A stretch of 64,000 nucleotides of DNA, taken from the NCBI GenBank assembly GCA_963774665.1, contig CAVZGB010000023.1, forward strand, positions 76,277 to 140,276, in the 5' to 3' direction. How positions within the stretch are numbered: position 1 is the stretch's first letter; every line of letters starts with the position of its first letter. Below the pieces are notes generated by a model, which was not told the origin of the DNA, searched no databases, and was given only the letters and a program-made list of their open reading frames with translations. This stretch comes from an uncultured delta proteobacterium. GTDB taxonomy: Bacteria > Desulfobacterota > Binatia > Binatales > Binataceae. Position numbers and translations under genes: made by a program. Positions 35,656 through 61,027 of this stretch are shown here, piece after piece.

Positions 35656-35805
35656 CGCCCCACACAATCATCGTCACTTCACGATCGCCGAGAAGCACTT
35701 TCCTGAAAAAGAAAAAAGAACGGCGCGGCCGATTTGGCCGTGCCGATGGATTCTCCCCCGCGCACCCGGGTGCTTCGAGCACCGCAGGCGGCGGGAGCTG
35801 CTATG

Positions 35806-36045
35806 CTACTTTTCGGCAGCGGTTTCCGCCGCCTTTTCAGCCGGCTTCTTGATGCCGTACTTGCGATTGAACCGCTCGACGCGTCCTGCGGTATCGACCA
35901 GGCGCTGTGTGCCAGTGTAGAAAGGATGGCACTTCGAGCAGACCTCGACATGAAGCTCTTTGAGCGTCGAGCGCGTTTCGAAGGTGTTGCCGCACGCACA
36001 AACTACAGTGCAGCGGCGGTATTCGGGATGGATTCCGGGTTTCAT
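35806..36045 (-). CDS. rpmE: 50S ribosomal protein L31, Zn-binding (C+) type
   Basis: [21 protein letters not shown]. Confidence 0.97.
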
Positions 36046-36096
36046 TTTAATCTCTCAAGCCCTTTTGACTATTGTATTGCAGGATACCATCGCAAG

Positions 36097-37682
36097 GTAT
36101 CGCAAACAATTCGCCCGTCTCTACTGCGATTTCGCCTTTTCCGTATCGTTTTCGCCTCCTCATCCGCAGCAATAATAATCACGATTTGCGCGATTGCGAG
36201 CTACGCCGCATCTTCGCCACCGAAGCCCCCATCAGCGCCGACGGCCGCAAGTGCCGGCTTCGCCCCCGATGCTCAAACCCTGTTCGCGCCCATCGTTTGT
36301 CTCGCGCCGCCCGGTCCCGCGCGGGCCTCGCGAGCGATCGCGATTTTCGATCGCCAGCTCGCCTTCCAGCGCAAACTGTCGTTCCATCCCAAAATTGGCC
36401 CGTCGCTTCAGAAAGTCATCGACCAGCTTCCGCCACGGCAATCGACGATAATTCGAGCGGCCGCGCTCTACTCGAAGCCGGAAATTCCATGGCACGAGGA
36501 ACTCGATGGCACGCATCAGATTTGCGTCACCGGACAGCCCGACAACTCCGACTATCTCTACTCGCTGGTCCACCAATGGCGCAGTCCCGAGGAGCCTTCG
36601 CGATTCTCCGGCGTGTTTGGTCTGAAGCCTTCCGCTGATTCCACTTCCGGCAACGTTTCGAGCGTGACCGGCACGCTCGCGGGCGAGCTGATGATGGACA
36701 CCTACGGTCTCGGCGCGCTGGTCGATCTGTTGTCCGGCACGCTGCGCGAGCTTCACGGCGACCTGAAGCCGCCCTGGGATTCTGCGTCCGGCAAGTTCAA
36801 CCACCATGACCGCGCCGGGCTCGACCGGTTCCATCGCCAGATGCCGCATCTCGCGGCGAAGTTCGATCACTATTTCAAATTCAGCAATCTGCTCGACGAA
36901 TTCAATTCGCCCGCCGGTCCAATCGTGCTGTTCAACGTCGATATGGAAGTTCGCCTGGACGCGCTGAAAAAGTATCCTCTGCTTTATGATTTCTATCGCA
37001 AGATCGTGCCGGCGGTGGTGGCGAAATCCGACATACTCGATACGCACGGCAACTACTGGATGCGCGAGGCGTTCGACCACGGCCACATCCACTTTACGAT
37101 AATGATCCGCAACGGTCTGCTGACACCGTTCAACGCCGCGCTGCAGCCCGCCGGCGGCAGTATCGCGCTCAGCGAAATTACGCAAGGTACCTACCGCACG
37201 CTCGCGTCAGGGCAGGTGACCAGCCTCGCGATGAATTTCGGCCTCGCCAACATTGGATTCACGACGGACTATCGACGCGATCCAGGCACCTGTACCTTCG
37301 TCAACCGGATGAACGCGGTCCCGCAACTGGTCGCGCCGCCCGGCGTTCATCAGGTGATGGACTTGGTTGCCGGCGACTTTCTGCGCGCGCTGGCGACTGG
37401 CGATGGAGGCCTGAATTCAAAACTCACTTCACGCCTGCTCCCCAATGGCACCTATGATTTCTCCGGCGGCTTCACCGCCCAGTTGGACTACTCGCCCACG
37501 CTTGAATTGCTCGCGCGTGTTGGCGACGCGATCGCGAAGGAACACAACGACAAGGTCCGCGTCGAGGAACGCGCATTCGGCGAAGAACTTTTCGATGCGT
37601 TCGTCGCCGACTACAATGACGCGCGTCCGGCGATAGCCGCATTGGATTCGGACAAGATCAACAGCAGGAAAAATCCAGATGA
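36097..37682 (+). CDS. large exported hypothetical protein (start uncertain; probable indel in the A-run near 37670)
   Basis: about 530 codons of open frame with a signal-peptide-like segment; an off-frame TGA overlaps the next ATG (ATGA 37679-37682). Confidence 0.65.
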
Positions 37683-38386
37683 GCCGCGCACGATGGAGAC
37701 CCTTTTTCACAGCGACGCTTTTTGCAGTCGCAGTCTTCGCCGCCGGATGCGCCGCGGAAGACAAACCACCACCCCCTGCTCCCGACTCCGGCTCGCAGCC
37801 GAAATTGCTCAGCGATCTATCCAGCGTCTCCGACGTTCACATCAACCCGTTGGCCTCCCATACGGCTCCCGCCCGCGGCGACGCAATGCTGCATGATTCC
37901 AGCTCCGATGCGGTCACCGCGGGGCCCCGCACGTTTCAGACGGACCCCGGCATCTCGCGCGTAGTTGGCAACGAAGCAAACCCAGGCACAGTGCGCCTGC
38001 TCAACGCCAAGGCTGCACAGTTCGGCGATTTTTCCGCACTGATTCTCGATCGCATATACGCGCGGCTCATCGAGGCCGAGCGAACCGAGGAAATCTCAAG
38101 AACGAAACTGCCTACCGACATCCGCCCCGTTGTCATCACCGCGATCTTGAACAAAAAGGGCACGCTCACCGAACTCATTCTCGAGCAACACTCCGGCAAG
38201 GCCAGGATCGATCAGATGATGCTCGATGTCTGCAAGAAGAGCATCTGGTACGAGAATCCCCCCGTCGCAGCGCTGTCCACCGACGGCACATACCAGCTGA
38301 CCATCAAGCTGAAAATGCAAAACTACGCCTCCAGCGACGAACATCACTGGAGCTTCATCACCGACCTGAGCCTCGGCATCAGCTAA
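37679..38386 (+). CDS. lipoprotein with a TonB-C-like C-terminal domain
   Basis: lipobox AAGC, Pro-rich linker, ILNKKGTLTELILEQHSGKARIDQMMLDVC...ENPP. Confidence 0.7.
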   Translation: MSRARWRPFFTATLFAVAVFAAGCAAEDKPPPPAPDSGSQPKLLSDLSSVSDVHINPLASHTAPARGDAMLHDSSSDAVTAGPRTFQTDPGISRVVGNEANPGTVRLLNAKAAQFGDFSALILDRIYARLIEAERTEEISRTKLPTDIRPVVITAILNKKGTLTELILEQHSGKARIDQMMLDVCKKSIWYENPPVAALSTDGTYQLTIKLKMQNYASSDEHHWSFITDLSLGIS

Positions 38387-41354: not shown

Positions 41355-42164
41355 CTATCTCCGCGATGCGGGTTTGAGCGCGACCGAGGCTTCCGAGGTC
41401 AGCAACAGAAAGGTCATCGATTCCTGCAGGTACAGGCTCACGTTCTTATCGTCGTGGCTCAAATATCCAATCGAGACGTCCTGGCCGAGATGAAGTTCGA
41501 AGTCGCCGCCGCGTGTCGTCAACACGAACGCTCCGGCAATCGCGGGAGCGAAAATGATTTCCTCATTGACCAGCCGCTGGATGTGCTGGATTACGGGATA
41601 GCCGTGATCGCTGGCCTCGCTCAGCGCCGTGTACGCATCGGCGCCCATCACCACCGAATACGGCCCGTTAACGCCGGCGAGGCGCAGCTGGCTGAGCGCT
41701 TCGGCGATCGCGTCGGGATAATGAGCCGGGTCGCTGGGCAGCGCCGCGATTTTGTTGCTGGTCCCTTGCCGAATGCCTTCGATTCCGGCGGCGGCATATC
41801 CTTCGAAGATCGCGCGGTCTTCGGCAAACGCGATTCGCTTCGCCGCATCTTTGAGGGGCTGCCAGTCCGAATCATTTGCGCCGCGATCCACGTCGTCGAT
41901 CGCCTGCCGATCCAGTTGGAATGGAGAACGCAGTTCGACCAGCGCTTTAACCTGACGTTGCCGCGCAATGATACCGTCGCCGGGAGCCGCTAGATCGCTC
42001 AGATGGCCGGTGCCGACCGCGGAAAGCATGAGGCCGCCCGGACCTTTGACATCAACCACACGCCGCCCTGCCAGGTAACGTTTCAGGGTTCGCTGCGCTT
42101 CTTCTTCGATTTGAGCCCACGCGCCATCCGAGATTGGGGCAAGCTCGCGGTGCAGATTATTCAT
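41355..42164 (-). CDS. family 1 encapsulin shell protein (linocin M18-like)
   Basis: MNNLHRELAPIS..AWAQIEEEA..TLKRYLAGRRVVDV; GGDFEL.LGQDVSIGY. Confidence 0.96.
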   Translation of the reverse strand: MNNLHRELAPISDGAWAQIEEEAQRTLKRYLAGRRVVDVKGPGGLMLSAVGTGHLSDLAAPGDGIIARQRQVKALVELRSPFQLDRQAIDDVDRGANDSDWQPLKDAAKRIAFAEDRAIFEGYAAAGIEGIRQGTSNKIAALPSDPAHYPDAIAEALSQLRLAGVNGPYSVVMGADAYTALSEASDHGYPVIQHIQRLVNEEIIFAPAIAGAFVLTTRGGDFELHLGQDVSIGYLSHDDKNVSLYLQESMTFLLLTSEASVALKPASRR

Positions 42165-43254
42165 CGCGCGATTCTCCTTTCAATGAGCCGATACCGAGCG
42201 AGCCATCGATTGCGCGCGGGGCATCTGGCGAAGAGCCGGTCTGACTGGAACCGGGTGCGGGTGCGGACGCAGTCGCCGCGGTGCCGGTGGGGGTGACACT
42301 ATCGAGGAACGAAGCCGGCGGCGCGAAGAACAAACTGCCGGTGACGGCGCGGCTGAAGTCCAGTATTCGATCGTAGTTGCCCGGCGGCAGTCCGACGAAC
42401 ATGTTCTGCAGCATCTGCTCAATCGTGCGCGGCGAGCGCGCATAGCCGATGAAGTAGGTGCCGAACTCGGTCTGTCCCGGCCGGCCGAAGATCCCGTTGG
42501 CGCGGAAGATCTTCTTCTCGACTCCGTCTTCAACGATGGTGGTGAGCGCATTGTGCGCGGAGGTCGGTTTGACGGTGTCGTCCAATTCGATATCCGCAAC
42601 CTTGGTGCGGCCGATGATACGCTCCTGCGCTTCCGTCTGCAGCGCGTTCCATCCCGTCAGATCGTGCAGATACTTCTGAACGATCACGTAACTGCCGCCC
42701 GCGAAGGCCGGATCGTTGTCGCCGACCAGCGCTGCCTCGAGTGCCTCGTTGTCAACCGGGTTCTCGGTGCCGTCCACGAAGCCGAGCAGATCGCGGTTGT
42801 CAAAATAGCGGAAGGCGTGAACTTCGTCTTCGACGGTAATCGAGTCGCCTAGCGCGGACATGATCTGCGTCGCGAGTTCGAAGCATAGATCCGTCCGCTC
42901 GGCGCGGATGTGGAAAAGCACGTCGCCCGGCGTGGATACGGCGTGGCGCGACCCAGCGCTGATTTCGTGGAACGGGTGGAGTTCCGCCGGCCGTGGCTCT
43001 CCGAACAGCCGGTCCCATGCCGCGGAGCCAAAGCTCATCACGCAGGTAAGCTTCGCCGCGGTATCGCGGAACCCAACTGCGCGCAGCAGGTTGGCCAGGT
43101 CGGGGCATAGCGAGCGGACTGCAGTCGCGCTTTCAGGGCGCGGATCAATCGTAACGACCAGGAAGAGCGACGCCGCCGTCGGTCCCATTACGACCGCTTG
43201 CGGGGTGGAAGGTTGCGGGTAGGTCGCGGTCCTGGTCGCGTCGGCGTTAGGCAC
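42157..43254 (-). CDS. dye-decolorising peroxidase with encapsulin cargo-loading peptide
   Basis: GFVDGTEN (GxxDG), proximal SAH, FIGYARSP, low-complexity linker, then DGSLGIGSLKGE; start approximate. Confidence 0.95.
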   Translation of the reverse strand: MPNADATRTATYPQPSTPQAVVMGPTAASLFLVVTIDPRPESATAVRSLCPDLANLLRAVGFRDTAAKLTCVMSFGSAAWDRLFGEPRPAELHPFHEISAGSRHAVSTPGDVLFHIRAERTDLCFELATQIMSALGDSITVEDEVHAFRYFDNRDLLGFVDGTENPVDNEALEAALVGDNDPAFAGGSYVIVQKYLHDLTGWNALQTEAQERIIGRTKVADIELDDTVKPTSAHNALTTIVEDGVEKKIFRANGIFGRPGQTEFGTYFIGYARSPRTIEQMLQNMFVGLPPGNYDRILDFSRAVTGSLFFAPPASFLDSVTPTGTAATASAPAPGSSQTGSSPDAPRAIDGSLGIGSLKGESRDE

Positions 43255-43402
43255 AGCGCAGCATTTGAGCATGATCGCAAGGTTGGAAAAAGCCGATCGT
43301 CACGCCCTCGCACCGTTTAAAATAGGAGAAATCCTGTACTTCCGTACTTGGCCGATCTATGACTGTTAATAAGCTCGGCGATTCCGCCAGGAGGCTTTTA
43401 TC

Positions 43403-46496: not shown

Positions 46497-47388
46497 ATGA
46501 CGACTCCCGACCAAACGATTCCCGTCACTCATCACCGCACGACCAAGGTCGATGGCGTGAACATCTTCTACCGCGAAGCCGGCCCGATGGACGCACCGGT
46601 CGTCTTGCTCCTGCACGGCTTCCCGACGTCGTCGCACATGTTCCGCAACCTGATTCCCGAGACTGGCGGATCTTTATCACGTGATCGCGCCCGACTATCC
46701 GGGATACGGCCAGAGCGACATGCCGGACCACACAAAGTTCGCCTACACCTTCGACCGCTTCGGCGAATTGGTTGACGGCCTTCTCGACCAGCTAAAGATC
46801 ACGCGCTATGCGATGTACGTCATGGACTACGGCGCTCCCGTCGGATGGCGGCTTGCACTGAAGCATCCCGATCGCGTGTCCGGACTCATCGTGCAGAACG
46901 GCAATGCCTACGAAGAAGGACTGAAAGAGTTCTGGGATCCGATCAAGGCATATTGGAGCGATCATTCCGAGGTTCATCGCAAAGCACTGAACGTGCTCGT
47001 CACTCCCGACATCACAAAGTTCCAGTACATTGACGGCGTCGCCGACGTAAGCCGCATCGCTCCCGATAACTGGGTTCACGATCAGGCCCTGCTCGATCGC
47101 CCGGGCAATCTCGACATCCAGATGGATCTCTTTTACGACTACCGGACCAACCTTCCGCTTTATCCCGCCGTCCAGGCCTGGCTCCGCGAGCGCAAACCGC
47201 CGACGCTGATCGTATGGGGCAAGAACGACAAGATCTTCCCTGCCGACGGCGCGCATCCGTACAAGCGAGACCTGCCCGACGTCGAGTTTCATCTGATCGA
47301 CACCGGCCACTTCGCGCTCGAGGACAAGGCCGATGAAATGGTCCCGCTGATCCGCGATTTCCTGAAACGAAAGATCGCGCGGCAGTAA
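46497..47388 (+). CDS. alpha/beta hydrolase, epoxide hydrolase/haloalkane dehalogenase-like (frameshift near 46660)
   Basis: LLHGFPTSS, APDYPGYG, nucleophile motif MDYGAPVG, DTGHFALE. Confidence 0.88.
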
Positions 47389-47400
47389 CGAAGGAGCACA

Positions 47401-47897
47401 ATGAACTTCGACAAGAACGACACGGCGGTCGTCTTCATCGATCCTCAAAATGAAGTGCTGAGTGAGAAAGGCCTGGCGTGGCCGCTGGTCCACGAGAGCC
47501 TCAAGGAAAACAACACGATCGAGAACATGGAGCGCATCTTCAAGGCTGCGAAGGCGCACGGCTTCGAGGTCTTCATATCGCCGCACTACTTCTATCCAAT
47601 TGACAAGGGATGGAAATTCAACGGGCCGCTCGAAACCGATGAAGCCGTGAACGGCTACTTCGCTCGGAAGGGTCTGTATACAGCCGACGGGCTTGAAGGC
47701 TCGGGCGCGGACTGGTTAAGTCGCTTCAAGCCTTACATCAACGATGGCAAGACCGTCGTCGTCGCGCCGCATCGCGTCTGGGGACCGTAGATCACGAGCT
47801 CGGGCTCCGGCTTCGCAAACGCCGGAGCGACAAGATCATCCTGGGCGGGATGCTGGCGAACATGTGCGCCGAATCTCACCTGCGCGAACTGCTGGAG
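47401..47897 (+). pseudogene. truncated isochorismatase/cysteine hydrolase
   Basis: FIDPQNE, premature stop at 47790, continuation GGMLANMCAESHLRELLE cut at the 47898 repeat boundary. Confidence 0.82.
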
Positions 47898-47988: not shown

Positions 47989-49614
47989 TTAAAAGAAGTC
48001 GTGGTCGCCTTCGGGCGTCCAGGACACTCCGCGCAGCACCTCGCCGAAGCCCGCGCTGCGCACCGTGTGGAAGCTTTCAGACGCCGGCAGAGTCGTTGCG
48101 GCCAGGCTATCGGTGATCGCAACCAGCTTGTTCGGATCCGCGCCCTGGTCGCCATTTCCGCTGACCGTCGAGGTGATCGCATAGATAGTAGCGGTGCCGT
48201 CCCGGTGCACGATCCCGGTCAGGTTGCGCAGTCCATCAGTCTCCGGCGCCCATGGAAGGCCCGTCGCAGGATTAGTTCCTGTCGGGTAGCCAGGGACGAT
48301 GTACTGCACGCCGAGTCCCAGACCGTTTTGCAAAGTATAAGCGAGATTCCAGCTGCTGGTCGCCGAGTTGAAGACCCACTTCTCAAGGCCCGCGAAGCCA
48401 TCCGTCGCGGCGTCGGCAAGGGTTCCATCGCCCTCATCTGCCACGTAGAGAGTGCTAGCGTTTGCGAACCATATTCCGAAAGGAAAGGAGGTAGTAGAAG
48501 TCTTGGCCAGCGTCGTATTGAAGCCGCTCAGGATGCACATGTTGTTCGGCAGACCCAAGGTTGCAACAGTTGCGGGATTGTAGCTAAGTGGCGTCATCGG
48601 CAAAGTCGCGGATGGCGAAGGGAGACCGACACCATTCGGGCATGCCGAGCGTGTGGTATCGACAAAGTAGACGGTGTCGATGCCGTTACCGCCGCTGCCC
48701 TTGGTGTAATAGACAACGTTGTTGAAAATCGTCAGGCCGCGGAAGTTGTCGTCCTTGCCGACCTTGTCGGGCTTCTTGTTGGCGGGCAGTTCGGTGATAT
48801 TGAAACTGGCTAGAGGCGTGGGCGTTCCCGGATTCTGCGTCAACAGCGGAATATCCTCGGGCGAGATAAACTGAGCGCCAGCTCCCAAAATGATGCCGAC
48901 CGGCTGAGGATTACCGCCGTTACCGGCATTGCCAGCGGTGTAGTAGGCGTCGATGTCGTCATTCAGGATTGCGGCGCGACCATTGTTCCCACTGTAAGCG
49001 TTGGTCGCCGTGAACTGGAAACGGCCCCACTGATCGACCTGCGCTACCGCGCGAAAAACACTTTCGGAAACCGGATTCGTCGGATCGATAACTCCGGGAG
49101 TGTTAGAGTTGGAAACGTCCAGCGCGTCTATTGGGGAAACGTAGCCCATAAAAGTCAGGAACTTTCGATCGGTCGATAGGTTCAGCGCCAGCTCAGATTT
49201 CGAGCTGAAACTGGTAACTACCGGACCTCGCTCAAACGGGGATCCGGAGTTTGAATTAGGCACCTCGAGCGTCCCAAACGAAAGCCTGAAGGGAGTTATC
49301 TGATCGAGGAAGATCTTCGATGTGATCCCGAAACTGCTGTCCACCACGTCATTGTTGAAGACCTGCGGATATGTCCCGTTATTTGTCGCGACGCCGCATC
49401 CGGTGGTGCAGCCAGGGGGCAGAGTCTCGCCCACGCTAACGTTGTTGGGGTTGTTGTCGTAAACGCTGCGGCTGACTACAAGGTTGCCGGGGATAAAGAA
49501 AAAGAAATGCTGATCGAATGCATAGGCCGAGGCGCTCACAAGAGCTATCAGCACGACTGCCACGAAACTGAATGAGCCATGCAGACGCGGCTTCCTTCTC
49601 GAGGTCTTGTCCAA
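47989..49614 (-). CDS. secreted beta-rich hypothetical protein
   Basis: 541-aa ORF with signal peptide; Asn/Gly/Thr-rich repeats (SKSELALNLS, YSGNNGRAA, FPFGIWFAN..TLYVADEG). Confidence 0.82.
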   Translation of the reverse strand: MDKTSRRKPRLHGSFSFVAVVLIALVSASAYAFDQHFFFFIPGNLVVSRSVYDNNPNNVSVGETLPPGCTTGCGVATNNGTYPQVFNNDVVDSSFGITSKIFLDQITPFRLSFGTLEVPNSNSGSPFERGPVVTSFSSKSELALNLSTDRKFLTFMGYVSPIDALDVSNSNTPGVIDPTNPVSESVFRAVAQVDQWGRFQFTATNAYSGNNGRAAILNDDIDAYYTAGNAGNGGNPQPVGIILGAGAQFISPEDIPLLTQNPGTPTPLASFNITELPANKKPDKVGKDDNFRGLTIFNNVVYYTKGSGGNGIDTVYFVDTTRSACPNGVGLPSPSATLPMTPLSYNPATVATLGLPNNMCILSGFNTTLAKTSTTSFPFGIWFANASTLYVADEGDGTLADAATDGFAGLEKWVFNSATSSWNLAYTLQNGLGLGVQYIVPGYPTGTNPATGLPWAPETDGLRNLTGIVHRDGTATIYAITSTVSGNGDQGADPNKLVAITDSLAATTLPASESFHTVRSAGFGEVLRGVSWTPEGDHDFF

Positions 49615-50949: not shown

Positions 50950-51972
50950 TTAGAACACGGGGATGATGTCGTCGGCGGTTATATCGCCGACATCAACTCC
51001 CTCGATATCAAGTTCGGGGATCGCGGGGAACTGGATGTCCCATCGCTCGACCAGCTTGCGCACCCGCGCGATTGCAAGGCGCCAGTTGTCGGCCTGCTGC
51101 TCGTAGGTGAGGATGCCGAGTCCCGCTTCGCGCGCTGTGCGCAACAAGATCCGATGGTTGTGCAGGAAGTAGCCGGGCAAATCCCAGAACTGCGCCGGTG
51201 GCTCCCAGAGCACCATCGAGAGGAACACGAACCCTGCGCGGAGCTGCTTGGTGATGAAAGTCTTGTGCTCCTCGGTGAGACCCGGCCACTCCTTCTCGAG
51301 CAGGTTGATACAAATCTGCAGATGCCGCGCTTCGTCGCGTCCGATTTTGGTGAAGATTTCGCGGAACACCGGATGCGTCGTGGCGTGCGCCATGCCGTGG
51401 AACAGCGTCGATGAAGCCACTTCGCCCATCATGAACGAAGTGAAGATCACTGCCAGCGGATAGCGATCGATCGCGCGATTGTAACCAGTCCAGTAGCGGC
51501 CACCGTTATGATACAGCCAGCCAATATTGTTGAGCGCGACGCGCTGCAGTTCGCTGGTGGGCGTAAAGCCTTGCGGCCCGTTCGGCACCAGGCGCTGGAT
51601 CACGCGCTGGCAAGTTTCCTCGTGATTGGTTTCGTCGCGGGTGATCGAGAAGAAGCATTTGCGGACCGGATCTTCCTCGTGCATCTCCCACGCATGAATC
51701 GTCGCGCGCGCAAACACCGCCGGCCCCGACGAGTCGAAGTTCGAAAGCAGCGCCCACCAGTACATGATCGCGACCTTCTCGTCGTCGCTCCAGGCTTCAG
51801 GCGAAAGCTCGCTCCAGTTGATGTCCGATGGATTGAAACCCTCGCGCTTGGCACGCTCGTAAATCTCAGCGAGCTTCGGAGTCTCGCATCGCCATTCGAT
51901 TGGAAAGATATTCGGCTGGGCAACTGCAGGCGCCTCGACCAGGCCGCCTGCCGGAATCTCGAATTCGCTCAT
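50950..51972 (-). CDS. ferritin-like di-iron protein of unknown family
   Basis: FD...RDETNH...MGE...RDEARH ligand spacing; AGGAG RBS. Confidence 0.82.
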   Translation of the reverse strand: MSEFEIPAGGLVEAPAVAQPNIFPIEWRCETPKLAEIYERAKREGFNPSDINWSELSPEAWSDDEKVAIMYWWALLSNFDSSGPAVFARATIHAWEMHEEDPVRKCFFSITRDETNHEETCQRVIQRLVPNGPQGFTPTSELQRVALNNIGWLYHNGGRYWTGYNRAIDRYPLAVIFTSFMMGEVASSTLFHGMAHATTHPVFREIFTKIGRDEARHLQICINLLEKEWPGLTEEHKTFITKQLRAGFVFLSMVLWEPPAQFWDLPGYFLHNHRILLRTAREAGLGILTYEQQADNWRLAIARVRKLVERWDIQFPAIPELDIEGVDVGDITADDIIPVF

Positions 51973-51991
51973 CGGCTTTATCTCCTGATCT

Positions 51992-52021
51992 AATCTACCT
52001 ACCATTTGGTTGATTTGTCAA
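51992..52021 (-). promoter_or_regulatory. internal sigma-70 promoter with an overlapping palindrome
   Basis: TTGACA-N18-TAGATT on the minus strand; the spacer is ATCAACCA-AA-TGGTAGGT. Confidence 0.65.
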
Positions 52022-54933: not shown

Positions 54934-55044
54934 AAATGAATTTGAACGCCCGCCGCCCGCTGATTGCATGCAGTTCAGGGATAGCGTTTTCCGATGCGAC
55001 GTTGCGGGCTATTATTTAATGAGCATATTGGTTCCAAGGGCGCC

Positions 55045-56376
55045 GTGAATTCACCTCTAGCTCTTCTCAAAAGCGATTCCCTCAACCGACGCGAACTTAC
55101 GTTCAAGGCTCTTGCGGGCCTGTGCGGCGGCGCGATTGGATGGCTGCCGGTCGAGCTCGCCTCGCACAACTCTCATCTCGGCGAGGCCCAGACGACGGGT
55201 GCACTTGTCGCGTACTACGTATCGGCCGCGATTGCTGCAGGCGCGATTGGCGCGTTTATCACCGCAGTAGACACGTCCGAGCTTCGAATAACGCCGGAGA
55301 CCCAGCGGCGCTTCATCCGCGGATTTTTGATCTGCGCGGGGCTGTCGGTGGTCTCGACCTGGCTCGGAAATCTGGTCTTCAACTGGGTCTTGCTAGCCGG
55401 CGGGGTCGGCTTCAGCCCGAATGGCGAGCTGGTTTCGGGGTCGATCGTCACTCTCGTTATCGCGAGATTGATGGGATGGGCGATCGACGGAGCGCTGGTG
55501 GGCGCCGGCGTGGGATTGGCGACGCTCACGATGGACAACGTCCCCAAGGGCGCGGTCGGCGGACTGGTGGGCGGAGCCGTCGGCGGAATCGCCTTCGACT
55601 TGATCGGCGCGATCGCCGGTGGCGGTCTGGCGTCGCGATTCTTTGGCGAAGCGGTCACCGGCCTTGCGATCGGATTGTTCATCGGGCTGGTACAGGAGCT
55701 GACCAAGGCCGCATGGGTCACGGTCGAGCAGGGACGACTGCGCGGGCGCCAGTATCGAATCGAAGGCGCGCGCGCGACGATTGGGCGCGCCGAGGAAAAT
55801 CCGGTCGGCCTGTTCGGCGATCCGTCGGTACAGCAGCGGCATGCGGTGATCGAGCGACGCGGCGCCGACTACGTGATCAGAAATATCGCCGTCCAGGAAG
55901 GCACCTTCGTCAACGGTAAGCGAATCGAAACCGTGGATTTGCACGACGGAGACAGAATCAACATTGGCGGCTACGAAATGATGTTCCATCTGCGCGGGAC
56001 ATCGGCGCCCGCGCGCCAGCAAGCGTCACTCTCGGCAGACGCGGTGAATCCCGCGCACATCGCCACGCGGCTGGCAGGAGCAAACGCGAAAGTCGACGGG
56101 CCGAGCCTGATCGATGCGTCGGGGCAGGCCTACCCTGTCCGCGCCGGGACGGTTACGCGCATCGGCCGCGCACTCGACAATGAGATCGTCGTGAGTCATT
56201 CGTCGATTTCACGGCATCACGCAAGTATCGAAAATTCCAACGGCTCATTCGTGGTGCGAGACCTCAACAGCCAGAACGGAACGTTCGTCGGCAGTCGACG
56301 CGTGACCGAGCCGACCCGGGTGAACGACGGCGAGGCCGTACGCTTCGGCGACGCGCAGTTTACCTTCCGTGGCTGA
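55045..56376 (+). CDS. multi-pass membrane protein with two C-terminal FHA domains
   Basis: Gly-rich TM helices; IGRAEEN...RHAVI...GTFVNG and IGRALDN...SISRHHA...DLNSQNGTFV. Confidence 0.88.
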   Translation: MNSPLALLKSDSLNRRELTFKALAGLCGGAIGWLPVELASHNSHLGEAQTTGALVAYYVSAAIAAGAIGAFITAVDTSELRITPETQRRFIRGFLICAGLSVVSTWLGNLVFNWVLLAGGVGFSPNGELVSGSIVTLVIARLMGWAIDGALVGAGVGLATLTMDNVPKGAVGGLVGGAVGGIAFDLIGAIAGGGLASRFFGEAVTGLAIGLFIGLVQELTKAAWVTVEQGRLRGRQYRIEGARATIGRAEENPVGLFGDPSVQQRHAVIERRGADYVIRNIAVQEGTFVNGKRIETVDLHDGDRINIGGYEMMFHLRGTSAPARQQASLSADAVNPAHIATRLAGANAKVDGPSLIDASGQAYPVRAGTVTRIGRALDNEIVVSHSSISRHHASIENSNGSFVVRDLNSQNGTFVGSRRVTEPTRVNDGEAVRFGDAQFTFRG

Positions 56377-56710
56377 AGCTGATTTCGAAAACCCTCGATT
56401 CTGTTCGCGATGCGGTCAGCCGATCGTCGTCGCCGAGGCGAGCTTCTGCAAATCCTGCGGCGCGCCGGTAACACGTTTCCCGTTGCTGCGCCGAACTCCG
56501 GGTTTCAACCCGGTCCTGGCGCTAATTTTGAGCATCGTCCCCGGCGTCGGACACATCTACCGCGGCAAGCCGTTCAAGGGGATCATGTGGTTTTTTTTCG
56601 TGTCGATAGCTTACGGAATGGGCCCGGCTTTCGGTATCCTGATTCACATCATATGCGCGGCCAATGCCGCCTTCTCGGACGCGATCCGCGAAGACATGCT
56701 GGCGCGATGA
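56369..56710 (+). CDS. zinc-ribbon membrane protein (TM2-like)
   Basis: CSRC...CKSC followed by LILSIVPGVGHIYRG. Confidence 0.78.
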   Translation: MAEADFENPRFCSRCGQPIVVAEASFCKSCGAPVTRFPLLRRTPGFNPVLALILSIVPGVGHIYRGKPFKGIMWFFFVSIAYGMGPAFGILIHIICAANAAFSDAIREDMLAR

Positions 56711-56768: not shown

Positions 56769-58283
56769 ATGATTGCGTCCAACACAATCGTCGGCGGACG
56801 TTACCGCGTGATGAGGCCGCTGGGCGGAGGCGGCATGAAACTCGTCTATCTCGCCGAGGACCTGCGGCTGGCCTCGCGCGAGTGTGCGCTGGCCGAGATG
56901 GTCGACACTTTCACCAGCCCCGAGACTCAGAAGCAGGCGGTCGCCGCGTTTCAGCGCGAGGCCGACATGCTCGCGCAACTCAGCAATGAACATATCCCGC
57001 GCGTGTTCGATCGCTTCAGCGATCAGAACCATCACTATCTCGTCATGGAGTACATCGACGGGATAACCCTCGAGCAGAAGCTCCAGAACGCCGGCGGCAA
57101 GCTCCCCGAGACCGAGGTTATCGATGTGGCGCTGCAAGTTCTCGACACGCTCGAGTACCTGCACAACCTGGAACCTCCCGTGATTTATCGCGACCTGAAG
57201 CCGTCGAACGTAATGCTGACGCCGTCGGATCAGGTCAAGCTGATCGACTTCGGAATCGCGCGATTGTTCCAGCCGCTGAGCAACGCCACCATGATCGGCA
57301 CGCAGGGCTACGCGCCGCCTGAGCAATATCGCGGCAAGGTCGAGTTCCGATCCGACCTGTATGCGTTGGGCGCCACGATGCATCATGCGTTGTCGGGTCG
57401 CGATCCCGCGGTCGAGCCGCCGTTCAGTTTTCCGCCGTTGCGTTCGCTGTGCCCTGACATTACTCCCGCGCTCTGCGAGCTGATCGATCAAGCGCTCAAG
57501 TACGATGTGGTATTGCGCGTGGCCGACGCGGCGGAATTCCGGCAGCGGCTGATTGCGATCAAGTCGGGCGCGCCGATCGCGATGCCGCAGCGAAATTCGG
57601 TAACCGCGCCGTCCTCGCGTCCGCAACTCAAGCTGCCGCTCAGCGAGCAGCGAGCTTCCGCGCCGACGATGCTGAGCAATCAGATCGAGACGCAATGTCC
57701 GCGATGTGGCCGGAACATCCCGGTGGATTCGAATTACTGCTCGTTTTGCGCGGCCGACGTGACGGGACGATTGTCGGGGCTGGATCGCGGCGCGACGCCT
57801 GAGGCGCAGACGATCATACTCGATGACGTCGCGTCGCCTCGCGAATTTCCGGGTCCGATCTTTCAAGAGCATCGGCGCCGCCGCCGTCCCGCACGAACGC
57901 TGGCGCTGGTGGTTGGTGGATTTTTTCTTTTGGGGTACCTGATTTTCCATTCGTCGCAGCCGCAGCCTTCCGATGGTGACACCGGACCCGGACCCGACTT
58001 CGGTTCCGTGCCTGCGGTGCCGAACCCTGATGCGCCCGTGCCAGGAGAGCCGGCCGAGCCGGCGCATACGGAGCCGCGAGAGATAGCGCTGCGCCGCGCG
58101 CTCGACGCACAGGGCTACAATTCGGTCCGTTTCAAAATGGAAGGAGACACCATCATCTTATGGGGCTCAGTGCCGACTGAAGCCGATCGCCTGATGGTGC
58201 AGACGCAGATCTTCCTGGTGGCGCGAATTTTCTCGATTGAAGACCACCTCCAGGTACGCGATAACTTCTTCGCCGAGCCGTAG
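56769..58283 (+). CDS. Hanks-type Ser/Thr kinase with relocated catalytic lysine, zinc ribbon, TM and BON-like domain
   Basis: GGGGMKLVY, CALAE, READ (alphaC Glu), YRDLKPSN, DFG, APPE; CPRC...CSFC; TM; C-terminal ILWGSVPT...DHLQV. Confidence 0.92.
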   Translation: MIASNTIVGGRYRVMRPLGGGGMKLVYLAEDLRLASRECALAEMVDTFTSPETQKQAVAAFQREADMLAQLSNEHIPRVFDRFSDQNHHYLVMEYIDGITLEQKLQNAGGKLPETEVIDVALQVLDTLEYLHNLEPPVIYRDLKPSNVMLTPSDQVKLIDFGIARLFQPLSNATMIGTQGYAPPEQYRGKVEFRSDLYALGATMHHALSGRDPAVEPPFSFPPLRSLCPDITPALCELIDQALKYDVVLRVADAAEFRQRLIAIKSGAPIAMPQRNSVTAPSSRPQLKLPLSEQRASAPTMLSNQIETQCPRCGRNIPVDSNYCSFCAADVTGRLSGLDRGATPEAQTIILDDVASPREFPGPIFQEHRRRRRPARTLALVVGGFFLLGYLIFHSSQPQPSDGDTGPGPDFGSVPAVPNPDAPVPGEPAEPAHTEPREIALRRALDAQGYNSVRFKMEGDTIILWGSVPTEADRLMVQTQIFLVARIFSIEDHLQVRDNFFAEP

Positions 58284-58293
58284 CATCCACCCG

Positions 58294-58953
58294 ATGATCG
58301 CCGACTTGCACGTCCATACAAAGCTTTCGTCCGACTCCAACGTCGCGCCGGAGCAATATCTCGAATTCGCGAAGACCTCGGTCCGCGGCCTCGGTGCGAT
58401 TTGCTTCACTGAGCACCGGCTGTTCCCGAACGATGCCGAAGTTGAACGGCTGTACGCCGAACTCGCGGAACGATTTCAGATTGCAATCTTCAGAGGAATC
58501 GAAGCCGACACCGACCTCGGCCATTTGCTGCTGTTCGGCGTGAACGACGAGGTGATGCGTCGATTCGATCTGACGGCGCGGATGCTCAAGAGCGACAGCC
58601 TGATCGAAGTGATTCATCATGAGGGCGGCGTCGCGATACCGGCGCATCCGTTTCGTGACTCGGGCTACGGCTCACGGCTGGACGCTCTGCTCAGCCGCCA
58701 TGGCTCGGCGATTGGCGCGGTCGAGGTGCTGAACGGTCAGAATTCGATCGACGAAAATCGGCGCGCGGAGGACGCTGCACTCAAGCTCGGGCTGACGGCG
58801 GTAGGCGGTAGTGACGCTCATTTCGCGACGGCAAAATGGTTCATGACGGTCGCGACGGAATTTGAACGCGAGGTTAAGACGGTCGAGCAGATGTGCACGG
58901 AGATTCGCGCCGGACGCGCGCGTCCTTACGTCTTTCCCGATCCGCTCGATTGA
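58294..58953 (+). CDS. PHP-domain metal-dependent phosphoesterase
   Basis: DLHVHT, FTEH, GIE, GHL, PAHP, GSDAH. Confidence 0.9.
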   Translation: MIADLHVHTKLSSDSNVAPEQYLEFAKTSVRGLGAICFTEHRLFPNDAEVERLYAELAERFQIAIFRGIEADTDLGHLLLFGVNDEVMRRFDLTARMLKSDSLIEVIHHEGGVAIPAHPFRDSGYGSRLDALLSRHGSAIGAVEVLNGQNSIDENRRAEDAALKLGLTAVGGSDAHFATAKWFMTVATEFEREVKTVEQMCTEIRAGRARPYVFPDPLD

Positions 58954-60989
58954 ACCGAAACTCGCGCCGCGCGGTTGGCTCGATGCTCTCCAACTCATGC
59001 GTGAATTGCCGGATATCTTGCGAACGCCCGGCTGCGACTAGCTCGTCGCCCTCCTTGAGTGGACGGTCGGGCGTAATAGGCGCGAATCCACTATCGGGAT
59101 TGTTCGCATCCTGAACCGCCAGCACCGTGATGCTGAATCGTGCGCGAGGGTCGAGCTGACGCAACGTTTTCCCCGCAGCATTGGCAGGGACGCTGATACG
59201 CGTCACGCGATAGCCGGTCGCCCAGTAAATATTGGTGTCGCGCGTGGCGAGCGTCGAGAGCGAAACTGACACGCGATTGAGTGCCTGCGCAATTTGCCGG
59301 CTGGTGACGAGCCCGAGAAAACGGCGCGTGAGGCGCTCGACCACCGGAATCTCGTCGAGACCGTCGTGCTCCATCAGCTGGCTGGCCTCGTCAAGATTCG
59401 CGTCGAGCGGCACGGTCGGACCGTGCGCATTACAGATGTCGAAGGCGTTCACGAGCGGACCTAGCTCTTGCCCGCGGCCGATCACGGTCAACAAATCTCG
59501 CACGACGATTGTACCCGACGAGCTCGCCGTCGCTGGAAATCACTGGCAAGGTGGATTGCGCGGTCTCGCCCGCAGTGCGCAGCACCTCCGCCAGCGAAGT
59601 GTTCTCGGTTACGATGGTGACGTTCTTGGTAACCACCGCGCTGACCGGAATGAGCGCGAGCGCGAGGCGTTCGCGCCCGATTTGCAGCGTCTTGCCCTCG
59701 CGCGCGAGGCGGAACTCGTCGATCGATTCGGTTTCGATCGCGCGCGCCACGACCAGCGCTGTGATTGTCGCGATCATCGAAGGCAGCGCGATGGTGTCGC
59801 TATGTGTCATCTCCCAAAGCAGGAACAGTGCCGTCAGCGGCGCATGCGTAGTCCCGGCCAGAAACGCGCCGAGCCCGATCAGCGCGTACGATCCGCGCGG
59901 CCCCGTCAGATGTGGAATCGCCATCGCCGACACGCGCTGGAACAAGCCGCCCGCCATCGTGCCGATGAAAAACGTCGGACCGAAGGAACCTCCAGGCGCG
60001 CCGCATCCCAGCGACACGCTGCTGGCGAAGATTTTTGCGCAGGTCATCGCGGCCAGCATTCCGATGCCGAACTCGCCCGCCATCGCGCGGTTGATGACCG
60101 GATATCCGTCGGACAAATTTTCCGGAAGCCAGATTGCAATCACGCCAACCACTGCGAGTCCCGCCTCGAGCTTGACCCAGACCGGGAGATTCAGCCGGCG
60201 AAACCACGCCTCGGTTGCGTTGAAAAATCGGATGTAGCCCGCCGCAAGCACGCCGAGCGCCGCGCCCATCAGCGCATAGGTCGCCATCTCCCAGTAACTG
60301 CGCAGCAGGAATTCAGGTGCGGTGAAAACGACAGCGTTACCGATAATCGCGCGCGACGTGATCACCGCGGTGAAGGTGGCGATGATCAGCAGAGTGAGGT
60401 TGGCGATCTCGGTGTGGCCGAGCAGGACGATTTCCTGCGCGAACATCAGGCCGCCGATCGGCGCGTTGAAGGTCGTCGCGATACCCGCGCCCGCGCCCGC
60501 CGCCATCAGCACCTTGGCGCGATCGGGCGACAGATTCCTGAGCTGCGCGATAGTCGAGCCGATCGCGCCTCCCACTTGCGCGATTGGACCTTCGCGTCCG
60601 ACCGACGCTCCGGCTCCCAATGAAAGCGCGGCGCCCGCTGCCTTCACGAAGATCCACTGCCGTTTCACTTTCGCGGTGCCGAGGTTCACCATCTCCAGGA
60701 AATTTGGAAAGCCGTAGCCGAGCACGTCGCCAGGAAAAATGCGGTCGAGCACCAGGATTGCGACGCCACCGCTCATCAGAACGATAGGAATCAGTGCGCG
60801 ATGGAATCCGCCCTTGTCAATTCCGAGCGCGTGCCATTCGAGCCCGCGAAACACCCAGGATGAAAATTCGATAAGTTGGCGGAACCCGAGATTTCCCAGC
60901 GCCGCGAGCACGCCTACAATCACCGCCAGCAGGATCAGCTGTACGTATTCGAACTGATCAACGCGCAGCGAAAGTGTAGGTCGTCGCAT
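58874..60989 (-). CDS. ClC family chloride channel/transporter with two CBS domains and an RCK_C domain (frameshift in a G-run near 59505)
   Basis: GREGP, FNAP, GGSFGP, THAPLT; CBS pair, then GKTLRQL...LKEGDEL. Confidence 0.9.
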
Positions 60990-61027
60990 CAGCAACCCCG
61001 TTCCATGAACGCGCTATCTGCCACGAG

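Follow-up and report, generated by a model that had tools for sequence, protein, structure and literature searches.

Can a bacterial Ser/Thr kinase without the VAIK lysine of strand beta-3 still transfer phosphate? The question is raised by a gene in a 64,000-nucleotide (nt) stretch of DNA from an uncultured soil bacterium of the Binataceae (contig CAVZGB010000023.1), referred to here as the window. Its product is a Hanks-type receptor kinase with an alanine (Ala42) at the site of the canonical lysine and a lysine (Lys24) in the glycine-rich loop (G-loop). A preliminary description of the sequence had called it a bacterial WNK-like ("with no lysine") kinase, active by means of a convergently relocated lysine, and had brought it into connection with chloride through a neighbouring ClC gene. 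It delimited the feature as 56769-57500, which captured the kinase domain, but the gene continues to 58283. We consider it probable, from the sequence comparisons given below, that the kinase is active, uses the convergently relocated Lys24 and signals via partners with FHA domains. The proposed ties to the WNK family and to chloride did not hold.

Both residues were read directly from the DNA. As described before, codon 24 is AAA (Lys) and codon 42 is GCC (Ala), the latter three base changes away from AAA or AAG. In a HMMER alignment with StkP of Streptococcus pneumoniae (E 2.5e-35), GGGGMKLVY fell on GRGGMADVY and CALAE on VAVKV. Lys24 therefore occupies the third position of the GxGxxG motif (G55 in PKA), and Ala42 the position of the VAIK lysine (K72 in PKA). 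BLASTP against the kinase domain of WNK1, with a sequence identical to PDB 5w7t_A, paired K24 with K233, A42 with C250, E64 with E268 and D160-F161-G162 with D368-L369-G370. The swap sits at exactly the WNK1 positions, as had been claimed. An AlphaFold2 (AF2) model of the kinase domain, based on 81 diverse sequences, reached a predicted local distance difference test score (pLDDT) of 89.6 and a predicted template modelling score of 0.87. In this model, K24 opens beta-2 (residues 24-31), A42 lies within beta-3 (37-45) and E64 within helix alphaC (51-69).

Lys24 and Ala42 were invariant in all 118 orthologues (58-100% identity), and likewise in 81 of 81 sequences down to 52% identity. Covariation of the two positions had been proposed in advance as a check. 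For this, the kinase domain was compared by phmmer with 1.84 billion 50%-identity cluster representatives, and the best 150 of ~12,800 matches (E ≤ 1e-30) served as the sample. The domains of these 150 proteins were 62 with K24/A42, one with K24/S42, ~100 canonical and one with lysine at both positions. Canonical domains had G, S, A or T at position 24 and K at position 42, and the sole K/K domain was a degenerate repeat. The nearest canonical neighbours read GGGMGxVY...CA[VI]KEM, versus GGGMKxVY...CALAEM in the swapped clade. Only two of 275 columns fully separated swapped from canonical domains (Jensen-Shannon divergence 1.0), and these were columns 24 and 42. The G-loop lysine and the loss of the beta-3 lysine co-vary perfectly across the clade, as anticipated.

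A neighbour-joining tree was calculated with columns 24 and 42 masked. All 57 near-complete swapped domains formed one pure clade, nested among canonical bacterial kinases and with an internal identity as low as 36%. This topology points to a lysine swap that arose once, with no reversions in the sample. Position 24 was Lys in all 57 clade representatives; position 42 was Ala in 56 of them and Ser in one, and Lys in 69/69 canonical neighbours. Among 88 metagenome kinase domains pulled with the generic patterns RDLKPxN and DFGIAR, mostly canonical kinases that served as background only, K24 occurred only in the three that belong to the family. By its distribution, the swap is beyond chance or sequence error.

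The swapped clade retained the rest of the catalytic machinery to the same degree as its canonical neighbours. Complete conservation in the 57 representatives was found for K144, N147, D160, G162 and R250, and near-complete conservation for E64, D142, F161, E185 and D196 (56 each), T174 (54) and T178 (52). The preliminary description had called the motifs intact. This was correct for the alphaC Glu, the RD loop and DFG, whereas HRD reads YRD and APE reads PPE. Retention of the catalytic residues down to 36% identity is hard to explain other than by phosphotransfer. WNK1 and POMK are precedents for a beta-2 lysine that supports catalysis (PMC1821047; PMC10211241).

We propose the following mechanism. 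The lysine that positions ATP's alpha- and beta-phosphates would have shifted from beta-3, where Ala42 now stands, to Lys24, with which beta-2 begins. From there it would extend across the small side chain of Ala42 into the cleft and form a pair with Glu64 of alphaC, the presumed salt-bridge partner, as Lys233 does in WNK1; we infer this Lys24-Glu64-ATP side-chain geometry from the WNK1 precedent. The shift happened a single time, in an ancestor of a large bacterial clade and independently of the WNKs, and it has outlasted speciation, duplication of the gene and shuffling of its domains. The kinase would autophosphorylate its activation loop, with Thr174 as the candidate site. A co-transcribed membrane protein with two FHA domains would recognise the phospho-Thr and pass the signal on, and an extracytoplasmic BON-like domain would provide the input.

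The genomic surroundings also point to an active kinase. The FHA membrane protein matched Pfam FHA in two stretches (E 6e-36), and its NCBIfam match to an FhaB/FipA-like model reached 99.9 bits, below the 125-bit cut-off. The end of its gene overlaps by 8 nt the gene of a small Zn-ribbon protein, and the kinase starts 59 nt after the latter. All three genes were found together in 80 of 80 orthologous loci, which were taken from GTDB species representatives. FHA genes also flank the swapped kinases of three other lineages (P0147, P0389 and P0162), and at the P0162 locus a PP2C phosphatase gene is nearby. FHA domains are readers of phospho-Thr, and together with the recurrent linkage this argues that swapped kinases make phospho-Thr. 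The FHA membrane protein is likely a partner or substrate of the kinase, and would act as its phospho-Thr reader.

Under the usual sequence definition, a missing VAIK lysine is the mark of a pseudokinase; none of the seven described bacterial pseudokinase families has this residue (10.1101/2025.01.12.632604; PMC12599244). Loss of the beta-3 lysine would then have ended phosphotransfer, leaving an ATP-binding or conformational scaffold in which Lys24 plays another role in the G-loop. Several observations weigh against an active kinase. Motifs have degenerated further in a few clade members: P0165 reads YSD and has Ser42, and P0211 has Gly at the RD-Asp, so pseudokinases can arise inside the clade. 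No FHA neighbour was found in five of the nine swapped-kinase lineages examined, and no PP2C phosphatase among the window genes examined. In the full-length AF2 model, computed from a shallow alignment of 54 close orthologues, the N-lobe came out helical and without meaning (pLDDT below 50), and this part was discarded. However, 52-57 of the 57 representatives retain the HRD-Asp, Lys144, Asn147, the DFG-Asp, the alphaC-Glu, the APE-Glu and the activation-loop Thr, and the replacement pattern is exactly the one that preserves WNK1 activity. Recurrent FHA neighbours, with a PP2C neighbour once, imply phospho-Thr production. A pseudokinase is rather unlikely on this evidence, if still to be reckoned with, and an active kinase is favoured, as the preliminary description had judged from the fully retained other catalytic residues. 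An apparent Lys-to-Ala change could also stem from faulty sequencing or assembly or from a gene in decay, and two single-base indels in the neighbouring ClC gene suggest that the assembly of the window is not error-free. The kinase open reading frame (ORF) is nevertheless intact and of full length, all three bases of GCC differ from a Lys codon, and every orthologue from independent assemblies has both K24 and A42. The orthologue data refute an artefact, which keeps practically no probability.

A different function was suggested by the WNK comparison, namely that of a bacterial WNK-type chloride sensor, in which chloride bound where the activation loop begins would inhibit autophosphorylation, and the adjacent ClC would be under the control of the kinase. 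The relocation of the lysine is the same as in WNK1, where it was suggested to make room for chloride (PMC7606576), and a ClC-CBS-TrkA_C gene lies one gene from the kinase, in 68 of the 80 orthologous loci. But the chloride in WNK1 is bound by the backbone of Gly370 and Leu371, with Leu369, Leu371, Phe283 and Leu299, and the mutation L369F abolishes chloride binding and regulation (PMC7606576). Phe161 of the kinase (DFGIA), kept in 56 of 57 representatives, aligns with Leu369 and equals the chloride-insensitive L369F state; that the protein has DFG instead of the WNK DLG had been correctly pointed out. The ClC gene, although one gene distant as described, lies on the strand opposite to the kinase and is split by frameshifts in the window. 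It belongs to a 12-kb block that shows synteny over its whole length in Binataceae, and unrelated genes for a CoA-transferase, a luciferase-like oxidoreductase, an alpha/beta-hydrolase and an aminotransferase recur in 50-64 of the 80 loci. Since these metabolic neighbours are conserved at similar rates, the ClC adjacency amounts to ordinary synteny inside one family. In five loci (L032, L036, L043, L045, L072), kinase and ClC are separated by insertions or an inversion, three have no ClC within ~6 kb (L057, L075, L080), and in L044 a partial match to CBS/TrkA_C was the only one, with none to ClC. Outside the syntenic block, a ClC neighbour was present at 0 of 8 swapped kinases examined. The kinase also has no family-level relationship to the WNKs. 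A functional link between kinase and ClC was rejected because of the whole-block synteny, the rearrangements and the lack of ClC near other swapped kinases; chloride sensing or control of the neighbouring ClC is unsupported, and we give the sensor an extremely slim chance. More generally, relocation of the lysine might not be neutral: the vacated beta-3 site might be a regulatory pocket of the active site for an anion or small ligand, comparable to the one used by chloride in WNK1, and the clade a group of ion- or osmolyte-sensing receptor kinases, which we regard as a long shot. If true, the pocket must differ from the WNK DLG site, and the BON-like domain (OsmY-type fold) and the conserved ClC-CBS-TrkA_C neighbour would become meaningful.

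The ClC gene of the window (58874-60995, minus strand) is divided into two overlapping ORFs in different frames, one for the ClC transmembrane domain (59430-60995) and one for the CBS/TrkA_C part (58874-59503). Relatives have a single ClC-CBS-TrkA_C protein, which is 674 amino acids long in L084; in L002 and L026 the open frame has 695 codons. Set against these relatives, the window carries one additional G near 59516 and lacks one base near 58971. The split gene is either an assembly indel error or a pseudogene.

Features of the kinase gene and its operon are listed in Table 1.

Table 1 Coordinates of the kinase, its sequence elements and the adjoining genes in the window.
Feature	Coordinates	Strand	Description or basis
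FHA membrane protein	54994..56376	+	Polytopic, ~five hydrophobic segments (residues 71-234), two C-terminal FHA domains
Small Zn-ribbon protein	56369..56710	+	N-terminal Cys4 zinc ribbon, C-terminal hydrophobic TM2/DUF6677-like part
Kinase gene	56769..58283	+	Intact ORF, 504 codons/504 amino acids, receptor-type Hanks Ser/Thr kinase
Kinase domain, residues 1-270	56769..57578	+	Pfam Pkinase, AF2, Foldseek
Lys24 (AAA), relocated lysine	56838..56840	+	Third position of GxGxxG, first residue of beta-2
Ala42 (GCC), site of canonical beta-3 VAIK lysine	56892..56894	+	Codon reading and alignments
Glu64, alphaC glutamate	56958..56960	+	Aligns with WNK1 E268; helix 51-69 in model
Catalytic loop Y140-R-D142-L-K144-P-S-N147 (RD kinase)	57186..57209	+	
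Activation segment, D160-F161-G162 to P184-E185, including Thr174 and Thr178	57246..57323	+	
Cys4 zinc ribbon C310, C313, C324, C327	57696..57749	+	Pfam zinc-ribbon matches below cut-offs
Single transmembrane helix, residues ~375-393	57891..57947	+	Hydropathy peak 1.91; AF2 helix 375-394
BON-like alpha-beta-beta-alpha-beta domain, residues 437-496	58077..58256	+	Extracytoplasmic C-terminus
PHP-family metallophosphoesterase	58294..58953	+	Pfam PHP and PHP_C; start 10 nt after kinase stop codon

The Pfam Pkinase match (PF00069) covers residues 12-213 (E 9e-36, 124 bits, cut-off 31.7 bits). All four Cys of the zinc ribbon were invariant across 54 orthologues, and an Arg-rich stretch lies directly ahead of the transmembrane helix. 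The C-terminal domain scored 12 bits with the BON model (PF04972), and 25.5-26 bits in the orthologues P0113 and P0417, with a cut-off of 27 bits. AF2 predicted for it two helices (436-448, 471-485) and three strands (454-458, 461-468, 489-496), with pLDDT ~90 and in the order expected for an alpha-beta-beta-alpha-beta fold. The predicted layout, in which the kinase domain is cytoplasmic and the sensor extracytoplasmic, is that of a bacterial receptor kinase.

Matches of the small Zn-ribbon protein to Pfam zinc-ribbon and DUF6677 models were all slightly below the cut-offs, and it scored 22.6 bits with the NCBIfam model '4Cys_prefix_kin' (4-Cys prefix domain; cut-off 24 bits). A Zn-ribbon protein is also encoded directly upstream of the distant swapped kinase P0185 (L081, 5354-5974). 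The PHP protein scored 76 bits with the NCBIfam CehA/McbA metallohydrolase model (cut-off 80 bits), and its gene follows the kinase in 70 of the 80 orthologous loci. The PHP gene is possibly co-transcribed with the kinase. Because no PP2C gene was seen among the window genes examined, one might speculate that the PHP protein is the phosphatase of the module. A scan for operon promoters and terminators gave nothing beyond chance level.

Swapped kinases with named hosts came from Candidatus Binatus/Binataceae (Binatia) and from a few metagenome-assembled genomes labelled Acidoferrum, Acidiferrales and Limnocylindrales. Binataceae assemblies contained at least three paralogous swapped-kinase lineages. 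More distant clade members (49-67% identity) were found on unbinned soil and peat metagenome contigs, and have other C-terminal parts, e.g. FGE-sulfatase or TPR; by their source names, P0128, P0133, P0183 and P0163 are fused to such regions. FGE-sulfatase is one of the architectures of the Proteo1 family in the atlas of bacterial Ser/Thr kinases (STKs) (10.1101/2025.01.12.632604; PMC12599244). The swapped clade, which shares this fusion, may be hidden within that named family. One swapped kinase, P0126, with a 66% identical kinase domain, was seen on two contigs (L082, 711-2156; L083, 2091-3536). It adjoins relaxase, TrbC, VirB3 and T2SSE genes on one contig and a phage-type integrase gene on another, which suggests carriage on an integrative conjugative element.

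Elsewhere in the window, an encapsulin shell protein (Linocin_M18, E 1e-98) is encoded directly downstream of a DyP-type peroxidase (41355-43269, minus strand), the classical pair of an encapsulin nanocompartment. Four long putative ORFs had no Pfam match at E ≤ 1e-5: 50950-52005 (minus strand, 351 amino acids), 47989-49614 (minus strand, 541 amino acids), 46792-47586 (minus strand, 264 amino acids) and 35734-37896 (plus strand, 720 amino acids). Searches for tRNAs and Rfam families gave no match in the 64,000 nt.

The textbook caution against writing off a kinase "with no lysine" as inactive comes from the WNKs. If bacteria have made the same two-residue exchange independently, it would be a recurrent and reachable alternative layout of the protein kinase active site, and motif-based pipelines would mislabel the swapped kinases as pseudokinases. 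Canonical sister kinases at ~55% identity would offer a simple bacterial system for asking what the relocated lysine buys, including whether relocation allows ligand control of the active site. The clade also enlarges the signalling repertoire of the Binatia, which are little-studied and uncultured and in which at least three paralogous swapped-kinase lineages stand beside FHA proteins.

How does this kinase compare with those already known? Kannan et al. (2007) described the shift from K72 to K55 in Wnk, as well as an R55/M72 shift in a subfamily of small-molecule kinases, and their survey of microbial kinases named Wnk as the sole functional eukaryotic protein kinase (ePK) family without K72 (PMC1821047). 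Reviews from 2023 and August 2026 listed as migrated-lysine kinases WNK and, as the only addition, POMK (PMC10211241; PMC13519141). Seven pseudokinase families were listed in the 2025 atlas, which covers more than 300,000 bacterial STKs, and in its companion review, and WNK appeared there only as a eukaryotic analogy (10.1101/2025.01.12.632604; PMC12599244). In agreement with the preliminary description, which knew of no bacterial example, no Hanks-type kinase from bacteria with a relocated lysine was found in the accessible full-text literature, and a mention in subscription papers is possible.

Among bacterial pseudokinases, ActPs1-3, GLW, CP1, DYD and DLHK share the missing VAIK lysine with the kinase, but in them HRD and/or DFG is degraded as well, or Lys is changed to Arg and the alphaC Glu is lost. 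DLHK is similar in that two beta-2 Arg were proposed as ATP ligands from AlphaFold3 models; it differs by its motifs (AVLT/HRDLRPAS/GFG), its cytosolic location and its fusion to helicase domains. No described bacterial pseudokinase family combines a G-loop Lys and a beta-3 Ala with all other motifs intact. POMK (SGK196) and CAK-chloro, a subfamily of choline/aminoglycoside kinases, are other independent cases of a positive charge moved from beta-3 to the G-loop or beta-2 (PMC1821047; PMC10211241; PMC13519141). In POMK, however, the alphaC Glu, HRD and DFG are missing, the Lys is paired with an Asp from a DLD motif and the substrate is a sugar, and CAK-chloro has Arg55 with Met72 and has lost the alphaC Glu. 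In contrast to both, the remaining protein-kinase catalytic machinery is canonical in the kinase studied here.

A close active-site parallel is with WNK1-4. In both, a small residue takes the place of the beta-3 Lys (Cys250 in WNK1, Ala42 in the kinase), the third Gly position of GxGxxG, where beta-2 starts, is a Lys (Lys233 and Lys24), and the alphaC Glu, the Asp and Asn of the catalytic loop and the Asp of DxG are kept. WNKs differ by their DLG motif, where the kinase has DFG. No WNK accessory regions (autoinhibitory/PF2-CCT-like, coiled coils) were detected by Pfam, which gave only Pkinase-type, zinc-ribbon and sub-threshold BON matches. The combination with a Zn ribbon, a transmembrane helix, a BON-like domain and an FHA partner operon also sets the kinase apart from the WNKs. 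The origin of the swap, in a clade nested among canonical bacterial kinases, is independent and bacterial. WNK1 is 30% identical to the kinase and scored 86 bits, versus 125 bits for StkP. The best PDB sequence matches were StkP and PknB (E ~1e-35), and the best NCBIfam match was PknB_PASTA_kin (196 bits, below its cut-off). Foldseek ranked Stk1, PknB and PknA on top (template modelling scores 0.73-0.79), with WNK1/3 only at ranks 23-34. Homology to WNKs was rejected, as sequence, profile and fold searches all place the kinase with PknB, StkP and PknA. The assignment to the WNK family has to be abandoned, while the word "convergent" in the preliminary description was well chosen.

With PknB, PknA, StkP and Stk1/PrkC, the kinase shares the Met of the G-loop (M23), the RD loop, DFGIAR, the activation-loop Thr and a single transmembrane helix after the kinase domain. 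Its model has the bilobal kinase fold, with template modelling scores to PknA/PknB of 0.75-0.79, and its FHA-protein partner parallels FhaA/FhaB of M. tuberculosis. These kinases differ in that they keep the VAIK Lys, with Gly, Ala or Ser at the G-loop position, and carry PASTA repeats where the kinase has the Zn ribbon and BON-like domain. Its Hanks-type assignment is based on homology and not on the missing VAIK Lys. Taken by its sequence, the kinase is a member of a PknB-like receptor kinase lineage with a convergent, WNK-type rearrangement of the active site.

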